Of a stretch of 64,000 nt of DNA, positions 10,048 through 33,343 are shown piece by piece (positions within the stretch are counted from its first letter, which is position 1; every line of letters starts with the position of its first letter). The position numbers were made by a program, and so were the translations under genes. The stretch is from an uncultured Clostridia bacterium (GTDB lineage: Bacteria; Bacillota; Clostridia; TANB77; CAG-508): assembly GCA_963931155.1 (NCBI GenBank), contig OZ006978.1, positions 131,357 to 195,356 of the forward strand, in the 5' to 3' direction. The notes beneath the pieces are model-generated. The model had not been told where the DNA came from. It saw only the letters and a list, made by a program, of their open reading frames with translations, and made no database searches.

Positions 10048-11520
10048 TTATCTAATTAACTTTATTTTTCCCTCTTCTGTTCTTTCTAGTTTCATATTCA
10101 ATGTTTTAATTAATAACATTCCTACTATCATAATTATTAAAAATGGTATTCCCAGTATTTGTTCTTCGCTATGTAATGCAAATGATGCAAAATTTGCTAT
10201 TTGACTTGTATAACTTAATATTAAAATTGTTTCTTGGGCTTTTCTTTTTAGGAAGAACATAGTTGGAAATAGCCACATTATATACCATGCATTAAAATTG
10301 GTTATTAATACAAATGTAAATATTAAAAGGAAAATATTATATTTTCTAATAATTTGTATAAATCCAATTTTCTTTTGCACTAATAACCTAACACAAACAA
10401 TCACATAAAAAACTGCAAATATCACTAGAGCAAGTGTTTGAATTATTTCTACTTTATCTTGTCCAAAATATTCATATATAACATACATTATAGACCTATT
10501 GTATTTAGATTGTTGTATAAACAAACCTGCCAAAACTCCAAAATCTCTCATATATATTAAATAAAATAATGCTAAAATTGCCAAATATTCTATTCCACAC
10601 AATATGCAATATATTATTCTTTTCTTTATATCTTTATTTCTTACACTATAAATAACAATAAATGGAAGTATCAATATTGCTAAATATTTAACAGCTGTTG
10701 CAAATGCGACACATGTCACTGCTAAAAACAAATTCTTTTTTCTTGTTGTAAAATATATAGCAAGTAAAATAAATAATATTATGCATATATCATTGTGTAC
10801 ATTTGATAAAGCCTCAAACAAAATAAATGGATTTAATCCATACAAAATCATGAATAATTTTTTTCTAGTTATTTTGTATATTAATATTGTATTTAATATA
10901 TGTATTAATATATTAAATATTTTAAATAATAATAGTGCCACATCTATATTCCCCAAAGACATTGCAGATAGCCCTGTACAAATTAAAGTCCAAAGCGGAC
11001 CATATACTACTGTTTCATATTTCCAACAATTTGCCACTTTATTAAACATCATATCACTTTGTCCAGTTTTATCTGTTATCTCTCCGGTTGATGTATAATA
11101 TGGGTTTTCTCCATAATGTGCTGATGACCAACCATTTGCTATATATGAGTATACATCTGTGCTTGTATATGGAATTATTACTCCAAATATTATTGAAACT
11201 AAAATCACAAATACTATTATTTTTTTAGTACTAATATTTTTGCATTTTTTAGCTATTAGCATATAAGCTAAAAATAATATTGTTATTAGTAAAAAAAACA
11301 TTAGTGCATTATTTAGCATTTCTGCTTTATTTACTGGGATTTTAAAAAAATATGTCCATACATAATAAAATCCATATACAGTTTTGTTTTTTATTAAATA
11401 TGTAATTGATGGTATTGCTAAAATTATAGATGCAAAAATAAATATAATTATAGGCAAATTTAATTCTTTTCTATTATTACTTTCAAGCTTTTTCTTCTTT
11501 GTTACTTTTTCCATTTTCAA
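10048..11520 (-). CDS. polytopic membrane protein, GT-C-fold glycosyltransferase-like (paralog B)
   Basis: 490 aa, same architecture and many shared blocks with 5284-6735. Confidence 0.5.
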   Translation of the reverse strand: MKMEKVTKKKKLESNNRKELNLPIIIFIFASIILAIPSITYLIKNKTVYGFYYVWTYFFKIPVNKAEMLNNALMFFLLITILFLAYMLIAKKCKNISTKKIIVFVILVSIIFGVIIPYTSTDVYSYIANGWSSAHYGENPYYTSTGEITDKTGQSDMMFNKVANCWKYETVVYGPLWTLICTGLSAMSLGNIDVALLLFKIFNILIHILNTILIYKITRKKLFMILYGLNPFILFEALSNVHNDICIILFILLAIYFTTRKKNLFLAVTCVAFATAVKYLAILILPFIVIYSVRNKDIKKRIIYCILCGIEYLAILALFYLIYMRDFGVLAGLFIQQSKYNRSIMYVIYEYFGQDKVEIIQTLALVIFAVFYVIVCVRLLVQKKIGFIQIIRKYNIFLLIFTFVLITNFNAWYIMWLFPTMFFLKRKAQETILILSYTSQIANFASFALHSEEQILGIPFLIIMIVGMLLIKTLNMKLERTEEGKIKLIR

Positions 11521-24803: not shown

Positions 24804-25796
24804 CTATTCTCCAATAATTTCAATTTCTAAACTAATAACTTTTCCGGTTTTATTAAACACTTCATCTTTCACATAATTAATTAAATCAATTATATCTTGT
24901 GCTGTAGCATCTCCTGTGTTAATAATAAATCCTGCATGTTTCTCAGATACTTTAGCTCCACCTATTTGTTTTCCTTTTAAACCACATTCATCAATTAGTT
25001 TTGCTGTTATATAATTATCACCTCTTTTAAAAGTACTCCCAGCACTAGGAAAACTAGGTTGTTTTTCTTTTCTTAATTTATTTAGTTCTTCCATCTTCTT
25101 TTTTATATCTTCAGTTTTTCCATGTTTTAGCTTAATTTTTGTTTCTAAAATTACATATCTTCTATGACTAAATATACTATTTCTATAAGAAAACTCTTGT
25201 TCTTCATTTGATAATTCTACTATTTCAGGCTTACTTGACTTCTTTAAAATTTCTTCCAATTCAATATCATCTATATATGTTTTATCAGTTAATTTATCAT
25301 ATCTTTTTAAATCTAAACATTTTGTACTAATAACAACATCCTTCATCTCAGAGCCAAAAGCACCCGCATTCATTTTTATAGCTCCACCAATAGACCCAGG
25401 AATACCTGATGCAAATTCAAGCCCTGTGACTCCTTTGTTCATAAGTTCATGAGATAAAAAAGCAAGATTAACACCTGCACCAGCTGTAACTATAACAGAA
25501 TCATCATCAGCTTCTTCTATACTTATATTTGTAAAATCTATATTTAAAACAAATCCTCTAATTCCTTTATCTCTAACTAAAATATTACTTCCATTACCTA
25601 TAATAGTTATATGAGTATTAGTCTTTTTAGCTATTTTAATAACAAATTTCAATTCATCTATATTCTTAATTTTAACAAAAATATCAGCATTACCACCAAC
25701 TTTAAAACTAGTATGTTTACTCATTGGTTCATTCATATGTATTTGTTCTGCCGGAATAACTTCTGTTAATTTTTGACATAATTCTAAAATTTTCAA
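24804..25796 (-). CDS. murB: UDP-N-acetylenolpyruvoylglucosamine reductase
   Basis: HTSFKVGGNADIF FAD-binding N-terminus and MurB C-terminal domain. Confidence 0.9.
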   Translation of the reverse strand: MKILELCQKLTEVIPAEQIHMNEPMSKHTSFKVGGNADIFVKIKNIDELKFVIKIAKKTNTHITIIGNGSNILVRDKGIRGFVLNIDFTNISIEEADDDSVIVTAGAGVNLAFLSHELMNKGVTGLEFASGIPGSIGGAIKMNAGAFGSEMKDVVISTKCLDLKRYDKLTDKTYIDDIELEEILKKSSKPEIVELSNEEQEFSYRNSIFSHRRYVILETKIKLKHGKTEDIKKKMEELNKLRKEKQPSFPSAGSTFKRGDNYITAKLIDECGLKGKQIGGAKVSEKHAGFIINTGDATAQDIIDLINYVKDEVFNKTGKVISLEIEIIGE

Positions 25797-26952: not shown

Positions 26953-27130
26953 TTCATACTCAATGGAAAAATTAAATTAATAACCTTTATAAAAATCTAA
27001 GTAAATAAAATTATTAATTTTAAAATTTAATTGGAACAGAAATTTTAGCATCATTTTTTAATTAATTTCTTTTTAGAAAACTTTAAACTAAAATACATCA
27101 TTTGTCAATAGAATATTAACGCTTAAATAT

Positions 27131-27162
27131 AAAAACACCATCTATAAAATGATGGTGTTTTT
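27131..27162 (-). terminator. rho-independent terminator after HNH gene
   Basis: AAAAACACCATC...GATGGTGTTTTT perfect stem with flanking A/T runs. Confidence 0.7.
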
Positions 27163-27167
27163 ACTAA

Positions 27168-27539
27168 TTAACTTATATATCCTATTTTATTGTGTATTTC
27201 TTTATGACAATTAGAACAAACTAAAATACATTTTAATGCCTCGGCTTTATATTCTTTCCAAGACATAGTATTCCCAGACCCTAGTTTAAATTCTTTAACT
27301 GAGGGATCTTTATGGTGAAATTCTAATGCATCAATACATCGATTGTATCCACAAATAGAACACTTACCTCCTAATAGCTTTACTGCTTGAAGTTTCATGC
27401 TTCTCCTTAAAATTGTTTTTTGATGTTTTCTACTAGTGTTATCTAATCTAGATGAATCACCACTACATTCAAAACAGTAAATACGAGAATATGAATTTGA
27501 ATTAAATTTTTTTCCGCATATTTCACAATATTTAATCAT
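27168..27539 (-). CDS. HNH endonuclease (small zinc-finger HNH nuclease), free-standing next to intron-containing tRNA
   Basis: CxxC...CxxC zinc knuckles, LGGKCSICGY...ALEFHHKDP...CSNCHKEIH HNH motif; start at ATG 27537-27539 with GGAGAAATATT SD. The track's longer 5' extension runs through the terminator and into tRNA 3' exon and is rejected. Confidence 0.75.
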   Translation of the reverse strand: MIKYCEICGKKFNSNSYSRIYCFECSGDSSRLDNTSRKHQKTILRRSMKLQAVKLLGGKCSICGYNRCIDALEFHHKDPSVKEFKLGSGNTMSWKEYKAEALKCILVCSNCHKEIHNKIGYIS

Positions 27540-27552
27540 AATATTTCTCCTA

Positions 27553-27586
27553 TGAAAAAAAACAAGAGAATTGCTTCGTCTTGTTT
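27553..27586 (-). terminator. rho-independent terminator of rRNA/tRNA operon
   Basis: AACAAGA...TCTTGTT stem followed by U7-8 on the minus transcript, immediately 3' of tRNA-Asn. Confidence 0.65.
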
Positions 27587-27594
27587 CTTCATTT

Positions 27595-27904
27595 TGGCTC
27601 CTCATGTTGGACTCGAACCAACGACCTATCGGTTACTGCACTACACTAATTTTCACTAGCATTATATATAATATAATTTGTAGTCTGGACTTTCTCTTTA
27701 CCATATCAGTTATGACTTAGGCAGGTGGTGTAAAGTCTCTACACATAGCTTTCGCCTTGCTCGGTATTACCATCAGCATTACCTGTTACGGCTTTCACCG
27801 AATTAGCCACCTTTTCATCTATAAGTTTCCTTATAGAGCTGCTAACTTCTTGGTTTTTCAACCTGCTCGACAGCCGAGCGCTCTACCAACTGAGCTAATG
27901 AGGA
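27595..27904 (-). tRNA. tRNA-Asn(GUU) interrupted by a 234-nt group I intron in the anticodon loop (exons 27870-27904 and 27595-27635, CCA encoded)
   Basis: Exons join to TCCTCATTAGCTCAGTTGGTAGAGCGCTCGGCTGTTAACCGATAGGTCGTTGGTTCGAGTCCAACATGAGGAGCCA, a perfect cloverleaf apart from a C27-U43 mismatch, anticodon GUU. Confidence 0.8.
27636..27869 (-). mobile_element. group I intron (self-splicing ribozyme candidate, tRNA-intron IC3-like)
   Basis: Follows U35 of exon 1 and ends in G (omega-G). Internal guide 5'-GUUAGCAGCU pairs with exon-1 end GGCUGU (P1, G.U at splice site) and exon-2 start UAAC (P10). Core blocks AAUUCGGUGAAAGCC, ACCGAGCAAGG, GUGUAGAGACUUUACACCACCUGCCUAAG, GGUAAAGAGAAAGUCC resemble Azoarcus/Anabaena tRNA introns as recalled. 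Confidence 0.7.
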
Positions 27905-27910
27905 ATATAA

Positions 27911-28026
27911 ACTGGCGACAACCTATTTTCTCAGCAGGGTAACCCACAAATATCGTCGGCACATTGGAGCTTGACTTCTGTGTTCGGGATGGGAACAGGT
28001 ATTTCCTCCATGTCATAATCACCAGA
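27911..28026 (-). rRNA. rrf: 5S ribosomal RNA
   Basis: TCTGGTG...CGCCAGT helix I, CCCGAACAC and internal conserved blocks. Confidence 0.9.

Positions 28027-31784: not shown

Positions 31785-33343
<1,559 letters not shown>

Follow-up and report, generated by a model that had tools for sequence, protein, structure and literature searches.

A free-standing HNH nuclease gene linked to an intron-split tRNA-Asn in gut Clostridia, a candidate homing partner of a group I intron

The window analysed here is a stretch of 64,000 nucleotides (nt) from an uncultured Clostridia bacterium (GenBank assembly GCA_963931155.1, contig OZ006978.1, positions 131,357 to 195,356). At 27168-27539 it carries a gene for a small protein of the HNH nuclease class, placed just behind a transfer RNA (tRNA) gene, tRNA-Asn, that is split by a group I intron without an open reading frame (ORF). 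We propose that the protein is a free-standing, homing-endonuclease-type partner of this ORF-less intron, acting in trans as in the collaborative homing of phages, and we put the probability of this reading at about 0.55. The proposal draws on family membership, homology with proteins found at the same site elsewhere, linkage, purifying selection and the joint loss of intron and nuclease; its activity as an enzyme, its target and an immunity due to the intron we infer. New are the occurrence of such a pair in a lineage of gut Clostridia, the place of the nuclease gene outside the intron (after the tRNA gene in Clostridia, before it in some contigs of the candidate phyla radiation, CPR), and the long-term conservation of the pair together with its pattern of co-loss.

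Linkage, co-loss and inheritance of intron and nuclease gene

An all-library search of representatives places the protein in a superfamily of great size, with 20,848 clusters at E<=0.001. The 1337 close homologues of the protein are 75-84% identical to it and about 123 amino acids (aa) long, and none of them carries a functional name from any source. A scan of species-representative genomes gave 79 close loci, nearly all from metagenome-assembled genomes of uncultured gut bacteria and all titled Clostridia, Clostridium sp. CAG:389 or CAG:575, Candidatus Merdicola, or Bacillota. All loci were retrieved through the HNH gene, a design that could not have shown genomes with the intron and without the nuclease gene, or empty sites lacking the nuclease gene. 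Upstream of the gene, 35 of the 79 loci have an intron-bearing tRNA-Asn at a distance of 67-373 nt (median 105), usually directly after the 5S ribosomal RNA (rRNA) gene; in another six the contig begins within the intron or the 3' exon (two show the exon only), and in seven, one to several genes stand between tRNA-Asn and HNH. An intron-less tRNA-Asn was found upstream in five loci and no tRNA-Asn in the available 1.9 to 8 kb in 18, while eight had too little sequence to judge. The first gene downstream of HNH belongs to 53 different families among 76 loci, and the intron-bearing tRNA is therefore the sole constant neighbour of the HNH gene.

Many of the loci without a tRNA retain 8-24 nt of a tRNA 3' end about 105 nt before the HNH start, and several have a gene for a serine recombinase, a tyrosine integrase or an AAA_21 protein just upstream of HNH. 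These loci are best read as islands that integrated at the tRNA-Asn 3' end and displaced the tRNA from the HNH gene. This 3' end is an integration hot spot, at which tyrosine integrase, large serine recombinase, AAA_21 and unknown ORFs lie between tRNA and HNH (examples at L005:1600-1810, L012:2925-4881, L019:1394-3249, L023:7126-8001 and L036:7839-7897). We considered whether L005, where the same HNH gene is preceded by a 427-aa ORF, was an assembly chimera, and rejected this in favour of an island like those of L012, L019 and L023. A direct repeat of 189 bp, 96% identical between its copies (L023:7752-7940 and 10782-10969), flanks the HNH gene and about 2.4 kb downstream of it.

Intron and nuclease gene were also lost together. 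HNH was intact in all 48 loci whose upstream tRNA-Asn carries the intron and broken in all four with an intron-less tRNA-Asn of the same exon sequence (G31-C39); it was intact in L069, where the intron-less tRNA-Asn is a variant with an A31-U39 pair (Fisher's exact test for intron-plus against all intron-less loci, p = 1.7e-5). This is the comparison with intron-less relatives that the initial annotation had named as one that could refute a homing pair, and the hypothesis survived it. The lesions comprise a stop at codon 111 that costs the protein C111, H112 and H116 (L085), an N-terminal truncation by which the first 47 residues are gone (L092), a deletion of residues 32-66 (L094) and a frameshift (L096). 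The four loci come from at least three lineages and are not all independent; their closest relatives, 91-96% identical in nucleotide sequence over kilobases, have the intron and an intact HNH gene. Assembly error is an unlikely source of four different lesions that all fall in the intron-less class. Elsewhere, in L041, a second and degenerate HNH fragment (L041:7100-7281) lies about 6 kb downstream of an intact copy and has the same deletion pattern, aa 32-66, as L094.

Where a tRNA-Asn copy without the intron occurs together with an intact HNH gene (L046, L063, L069 and L074), it always has A31-U39, the pair beside the insertion site. The L069 copy is the one upstream of HNH, whereas those of L046, L063 and L074 are second tRNA-Asn copies. 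This isodecoder (CTCGA CTGTTAA TCGAT) was located at L046:1949-2024, L063:1897-1972, L074:10432-10507 (minus strand) and L069:302-377, and in some species it sits 1-2.5 kb from the HNH gene. In L069 it stands in place of the intron-bearing copy directly upstream of the intact HNH gene, possibly as a result of recombination between the two copies. The split between G31-C39 and A31-U39 matches what immunity by sequence would predict, and is suggestive only.

Across 71 distinct intact alleles, the median ratio of nonsynonymous to synonymous substitution rates (dN/dS) was 0.12, with synonymous sites near saturation. In close genome pairs, HNH and flanks were 96.7% and 98.1% identical in one comparison and 80.3% and 75.4% in another, and a test for a recent sweep, which set HNH against flank identity in such pairs, found no excess identity. 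The G+C content (GC) of the gene is 28.2%, against 28.1% for the window. Because dN/dS is this low and divergence resembles that of the flanks, the gene is an old, functional and vertically inherited resident, neither a relic nor a recent arrival. By Mantel test, HNH distances are not significantly correlated with those of the intron or of 5S, while the latter two correlate with each other (rho 0.33, p 0.001); for a star-like family of 123-aa proteins the HNH null is uninformative and is not evidence of transfer. Transfer among the five species with identical HNH proteins (L023-L026, L030) was considered and rejected, as these are near-identical genomes with rearrangements.

The protein and its relatives at tRNA genes

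The product of 27168-27539 is predicted to be a small DNA endonuclease composed of a zinc ribbon and an HNH core. Pfam PF01844 matched it below threshold (E 0.017, 15.7 bits; cut-off 21.4), the NCBIfam scan gave no match and the PADLOC defence models matched 0 families. Three PHROG families, 2255, 3106 and 35854, all named 'HNH endonuclease', matched with E 7e-27 to 9e-19, the first of these values belonging to phrog_2255. C63, H75, H76, C108, N110, C111 and H112 are invariant across 33 diverse members, and C60 and H116 are at least 90% conserved. With the PHROG match and these residues we consider the HNH identification solid despite the sub-threshold Pfam score; PF01844 is recorded for some CPR homologues. 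An AlphaFold model with a predicted local distance difference test score (pLDDT) of 88.6 has an N-terminal zinc ribbon, a long basic helix and a beta-beta-alpha core. Its top structural neighbours are the HNH nucleases Cap5, GVE2 HNH, Cas9 HNH, McrA and Gme HNH, with match scores that are modest, as expected for so small a domain. A single-sequence search of the PDB returned zinc-finger noise only, and a search with the family profile matched only the McrA HNH and, in a group II intron maturase, the endonuclease domain, both below threshold. The label of an HNH zinc-finger protein, given to this gene from the first, thus holds by PHROG matches, conserved ligands and model fold; a kinship with I-HmuI-like enzymes, for which the initial annotation had proposed a phylogeny, does not fit, I-HmuI being absent from the PDB sequence matches of both the single sequence and the family profile.

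The weakest match of the genome scan was the chromosome of WWE3 bacterium RAAC2 (CP006914.1). In its tRNA-Asn(GUU) the CUGU/UAA site is interrupted, as in the window, by a group I intron, here of 569 nt (90.3 bits with Rfam). This intron encloses an ORF of 116 aa that matches residues 45-119 of the window protein at 61% identity and keeps KCVLVCSNCHKEIHN nearly letter for letter. More widely, the HNH core is 55-62% identical to ORFs within the introns at positions 35/36 of tRNA-Asn in WWE3 and other CPR bacteria, with the motif KC[IV]LVCSNCHKEIH in common. A protein search with the WWE3 ORF found 618 relatives of 100-130 aa in Microgenomates, Parcubacteria, Nealsonbacteria and others; those whose context was inspected also lay in tRNA-Asn introns. 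Of 80 loci from a metagenome scan, 70 were evaluable; the ORF lay within the tRNA intron in 61 of the 70 and was free-standing beside an ORF-less, intron-bearing tRNA-Asn in about seven.

Free-standing CPR homologues accompany ORF-less introns of 206-291 nt in L188 (L188:1501-2106), where the stop codon of the ORF lies within the tRNA 5' end, and in L156, L185, L134 and L155 on the same strand; in L157 and L165 the homologue beside the tRNA-Asn with an ORF-less intron is on the opposite strand. In L104 (L104:2001-2427), L105 and L179 (L179:1501-1912) a free-standing homologue is found 36-56 nt upstream of an intron-less tRNA-Asn, whose anticodon stem has C31-G39 in L104. The DUF1189 gene upstream in L104 and L105 is the neighbour at the intron-containing locus L101, and in L097 a 288-aa ORF is found there. 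A CPR tRNA-Asn in L098 has an HNH ORF in its intron, and an 82-aa GIY-YIG ORF (L098:1689-1937) ends within the tRNA 5' end, so that two different nuclease families meet at one tRNA gene.

A profile of the Clostridial intron, run with nhmmer, matched 73 of the 92 CPR loci; the best E value was 4e-16, and 39 of the matches span the core. The matches are full-length on ORF-less CPR introns; on ORF-containing introns they begin after the P2 region, the place of ORF insertion. By this comparison the Clostridial and CPR tRNA-Asn introns are homologous across phyla. Identity of the HNH core was tried as a guide to origin and rejected, since CPR intron-encoded and phage-type relatives overlap, all at 49-64%. 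In alignments, the phage relatives share the N-terminal zinc ribbon, which the intron-encoded relatives in CPR bacteria lack. ARAGORN labelled about half of the intron-split tRNA-Asn genes in L109-L188 as tRNA-Thr(tgt/cgt), or as Tyr, Glu or His. The 'Thr(tgt)' and 'Thr(cgt)' calls are mis-registered Asn, because GT (or similar) is repeated at both intron boundaries; only the CUGU/UAA placement leaves the terminal G on the intron.

Proteins 40-47% identical to that of the window, zinc ribbon included, are encoded in 366 phage records. ORF44 of Felix O1 is 40% identical over its full length, again including the zinc ribbon, and its end overlaps the start of tRNA-Ile in a phage tRNA array. The closest sister family, P0394, is 51% identical and 124 aa long and lies 43 nt before a tRNA array in phage-like contigs of about 100 kb. 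These phage relatives, at L189 (Salmonella phage Felix O1 25030-25584) and L191/L193:3001-3492, are at the edge of phage tRNA arrays, where they stand 43 nt before tRNA-Ile or overlap it; on the L191/L193 contigs there are also a T4-type RNA ligase 1 and another HNH gene. Broadly, the wider family is one of tRNA-gene-associated nucleases, with members in or beside tRNA genes.

Structure of the locus in the window

The tRNA-Asn exons can be read directly from the sequence as TCCTCATTAGCTCAGTTGGTAGAGCGCTCGGCTGT and TAACCGATAGGTCGTTGGTTCGAGTCCAACATGAGGAGCCA. When joined they give an anticodon loop CUGU/UAA, that is Asn(GUU); the 5' splice site is preceded by U, and the last base of the intron is G. 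Rfam Intron_gpI matched the 234-nt intron with 38.6 bits (E 3e-8), below the gathering score of 50. Default ARAGORN did not call the split tRNA, and Rfam at its gathering threshold likewise misses 27595-27904; with introns allowed, ARAGORN recovered exactly 27595-27904 and mislabelled it tRNA-Phe(aaa). The consensus structure computed from 29 homologous introns contains 91 pairs, and compensatory changes are seen at 37 of these. It includes a P1 in which exon G31-U35 pairs with the guide sequence and U35-G forms a wobble. Compensatory changes and P1 together establish that the intron is real and under structural constraint. The tRNA-Asn gene of a widespread group of gut Clostridia is accordingly invisible to standard tRNA finders, and genomes of the clade appear to be without it.

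Table 1. Features of the rRNA-tRNA-HNH region of the window
Feature	Position	Strand	Basis
16S rRNA	33344-31795	minus	
23S rRNA	31121-28237	minus	
5S rRNA, final gene of rRNA operon, 5-nt gap to tRNA	27910..28026	minus	Rfam RF00001, 88.8 bits
tRNA-Asn(GUU) 5' exon, 35 nt, ends ...GGCUGU	27870..27904	minus	sequence; exon matches in 48 related loci
Group I intron without ORF, 234 nt, inserted in the anticodon loop between 35 and 36	27636..27869	minus	Rfam Intron_gpI, consensus fold
tRNA-Asn 3' exon, 41 nt including CCA	27595..27635	minus	sequence; exon matches
Hairpin and U-run in tRNA/HNH spacer	27552..27592	minus	fold -13.2 kcal/mol, z -2.8, runs into U8
Shine-Dalgarno AGGAG	27547..27551	minus	sequence; 7 nt ahead of HNH ATG
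Free-standing HNH gene, 123 aa, stop codon included	27168..27539	minus	ORF list and sequence
N-terminal zinc ribbon, aa 1-30: C5, C8, C22, C25	27450..27539	minus	alignments; model strands 2-4, 11-13
HNH (beta-beta-alpha-metal) core, aa 57-119	27183..27371	minus	C60, C63, H75, H76, C108, N110, C111, H112, H116
Hairpin and U-run 3' of HNH stop (terminator)	27129..27164	minus	fold -18.2 kcal/mol, z -7.0

The HNH gene is single-copy within the window and follows the rRNA operon in the minus-strand order 16S, tRNA-Ala, 23S, 5S, tRNA-Asn, HNH, inositol monophosphatase, MurB and CofD. Its ATG is at 27539 and its stop ends at 27168; the protein reads MIKYCEICGKK...HKEIHNKIGYIS, and the 123-codon ORF is also written MIKYCEICGKK...CSNCHKEIHNKIGYIS. 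A longer frame of 145 aa from 27605, starting within the tRNA 3' exon, was rejected, all homologues starting MIK or MKK. The initial annotation had placed a 123-aa HNH gene with its own Shine-Dalgarno sequence just past tRNA-Asn, between the rRNA operon and housekeeping genes, with an operon terminator before it and a terminator of its own; this layout was recovered in full, with a spacer of 55 nt between the tRNA CCA, ending at 27595, and the HNH ATG, and with a hairpin and U-run folded on each side. The hairpin in the spacer is, by its predicted fold, a weak intrinsic terminator of the rRNA-tRNA transcript. A generic terminator scan, which needs at least three G-C pairs, called neither of the flanking hairpins; we folded them directly because this rule is unsuited to a genome of 28% GC. 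A promoter consensus scan found no minus-strand promoter ahead of the HNH gene. Further up the operon, the 16S rRNA (window 33220-33270, minus strand) has 41 nt where the Rfam model has six, near model position 70-80, a lineage-specific helix expansion.

A possible mechanism, its alternatives and known systems

If the protein is a homing partner, the enzyme would recognise the uninterrupted tRNA-Asn and nick or cut it near 35/36. The intron splits this target site and would render the carrier chromosome immune. When a cut allele without the intron is repaired on an intron-plus donor, the intron would be copied and, with it, the nuclease gene, which lies about 100 nt downstream and within co-conversion distance. 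The pair as it is now would be old, nearly fixed and vertically inherited, with a mutual dependence: as long as the nuclease is intact the intron is kept, and once the intron is lost the nuclease gene decays.

Several observations weigh against this reading. The HNH gene is intact in 14 of the 18 loci without tRNA-Asn in the available upstream sequence, and because the distances there are of kilobases, the tRNA and a displaced HNH gene could not be co-converted. We met no evidence of mobility: the gene has the GC of its host, diverges like its flanks and is near-universal in the clade. No empty site lacking HNH was seen either, though loci seeded with HNH could not have shown one. A purely selfish nuclease, once fixed, should decay, and yet dN/dS is 0.12; selfishness alone is insufficient. 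A protein in the service of the intron, in splicing for instance, would account for co-loss equally well. The contrast of G31-C39 and A31-U39 has another explanation: P1 pairing also requires G31, and the copies with A31-U39 may simply represent an older paralogue. Lastly, alignment with EcoKMcrA (DNCVALCPNCH) puts a conserved Lys, K103 (EKCILVCSNCH), at the structural Asn of the H-N-H motif, and DNA-cleaving activity cannot be assumed because of this replacement.

These points lead to alternatives, of which a domesticated helper of the intron comes first and is, in our view, unlikely. Such a protein would be a splicing cofactor, binding RNA in a maturase-like manner through zinc ribbon and basic helix, or would act in processing of the 5S-tRNA transcript, with DNA cleavage secondary or lost. 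Long purifying selection, near fixation and vertical inheritance are what a helper would show, as are the decay of HNH following intron loss and the replacement of the structural Asn by Lys; a gene that stays intact kilobases from the tRNA fits a trans-acting product, and the window intron scores 38.6 bits on Rfam where CPR introns score 80-96. It is harder to see why a helper should keep the HNH metal and zinc ligands, superfluous for an RNA chaperone, or why HNH is intact beside the intron-less tRNA-Asn of L069. We know of no group I maturase of the HNH type. The CPR tRNA-Asn 35/36 introns, moreover, self-splice protein-free in vitro (PMC13011429).

We think it improbable that the pair is an addiction or defence module, in which the nuclease would cut uninterrupted tRNA-Asn genes on incoming DNA (phage tRNA arrays, transforming DNA) while the intron shields the host tRNA gene, so that the cell would profit from the pair and selection would act at the host level. 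Purifying selection without signs of mobility would suit such a role. So would the relatives in phage tRNA arrays, with phages such as Felix O1 carrying tRNA-Asn genes, and the variant base pair that the resident intron-less copies bear at the insertion site. No PADLOC model matched, however, the window holds no associated defence genes, and the idea is entirely inferential and demands a particular target specificity. No methyltransferase, terminase or prophage neighbourhood was seen, the neighbours being the rRNA operon, inositol monophosphatase, MurB and CofD.

Somewhat unlikely, and held tentatively, is the more general view that the nuclease is by now a domesticated partner of the intron, no longer (only) selfish, be it as an HNH splicing or processing protein or as half of a 'poison and immunity' pair. 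In its splicing form it would be the first HNH-type protein needed for an intron-split, and possibly the sole, tRNA-Asn. As 'poison and immunity' it would make the intron unlosable, and incoming uninterrupted tRNA-Asn genes (phage arrays, foreign alleles) would be cut. Either form, if true, would explain strong purifying selection on a fixed, vertically inherited element.

A coincidental neighbour, that is, a generic HNH nuclease (prophage remnant, restriction or repair enzyme) beside a tRNA integration site, is very improbable and largely refuted. The tRNA-Asn 3' end is truly an integration hot spot and the PHROG relatives are phage proteins; against this, adjacency holds in 48 species in the face of 53 downstream families, islands insert between tRNA and HNH and not around HNH, homologues lie within the same intron in another phylum, HNH is lost with the intron, and the window neighbourhood has no phage genes. 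That the gene is a decaying, non-functional relic of the event that delivered the intron, a remnant such as the initial annotation had allowed for and such as an ORF-less intron with a gene outside it might suggest, is refuted by the selection analysis, with dN/dS of 0.12 where synonymous sites are saturated, intact alleles in 71 distinct forms and invariant catalytic residues, alongside host-like GC and flank-like divergence.

For how homing endonuclease genes came to be united with group I introns, the favoured model, in which a free-standing nuclease first targets the insertion site and then enters the intron, rests on few phage cases. At tRNA-Asn 35/36, cellular chromosomes of two phyla offer a natural series: the nuclease within the intron, free-standing before or after an ORF-less intron, beside an intron-less tRNA, and decayed after intron loss. 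Evolutionary direction, target specificity and 'immunity by intron' are therefore testable from this series with few proteins and DNA substrates. About 1300 unannotated protein clusters gain a functional hypothesis.

The closest known system is that of Patescibacteria, in which self-splicing in vitro was described in 2026 (mSystems) for group I introns at 35/36 of tRNA-Asn and tRNA-Asp (PMC13011429). The tRNA-Asn(GUU) introns were assigned to subgroup IA, four 35/36 introns of tRNA-Asn carry HNH homing-endonuclease genes, said to be confined to Patescibacteria, and free-standing copies of such endonucleases are not mentioned (PMC13011429); an earlier preprint lists 21 tRNA intron settings (10.1101/2020.01.27.920355). 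That system and the window pair have the tRNA, the 35/36 site, a homologous intron and the HNH core (55-62%) in common. They differ in that the Clostridial gene is outside the intron, about 55-100 nt past the tRNA, and its product carries an additional zinc ribbon at the N terminus, and in the host of the window, an uncultured gut lineage of Clostridia (Bacillota).

Other likenesses are with phage enzymes. The I-HmuI-type nickases of Bacillus phages are also of the HNH superfamily and associated with group I introns, but I-HmuI is without CxxC zinc sites. Endonucleases of phage tRNA clusters, such as the HNH proteins ORF44/45 of Felix O1, are free-standing but have no intron and reside in phage genomes; T4 SegB is a GIY-YIG free-standing homing endonuclease of a phage tRNA gene cluster (PMC2330249). 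MobE is a free-standing HNH-family endonuclease beside a gene with an intron that is not itself mobile, the two being inherited together, but it nicks away from the insertion site, and no close relationship in sequence to the window protein came to light, although no comparison aimed at one was made. Cases of collaborative homing in phages given in PMC2790892 and PMC6083498 include F-CphI/psbA in cyanophage S-PM2 and a DNA polymerase intron of T7-like phages. There too the nuclease gene adjoins an endonuclease-lacking intron in a conserved gene; for the window pair the target is likewise predicted to be the insertion site, and immunity to come from the intron. Cleavage and mobility have been demonstrated in co-infections for the phage systems, and F-CphI has an Endo VII-type motif, whereas the window pair is known from sequence, lies on a cellular chromosome at the end of an rRNA operon and is vertically inherited. 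The initial annotation had seen in it a possible chromosomal analogue of phage collaborative homing, and the comparative evidence assembled here argues for that analogy.

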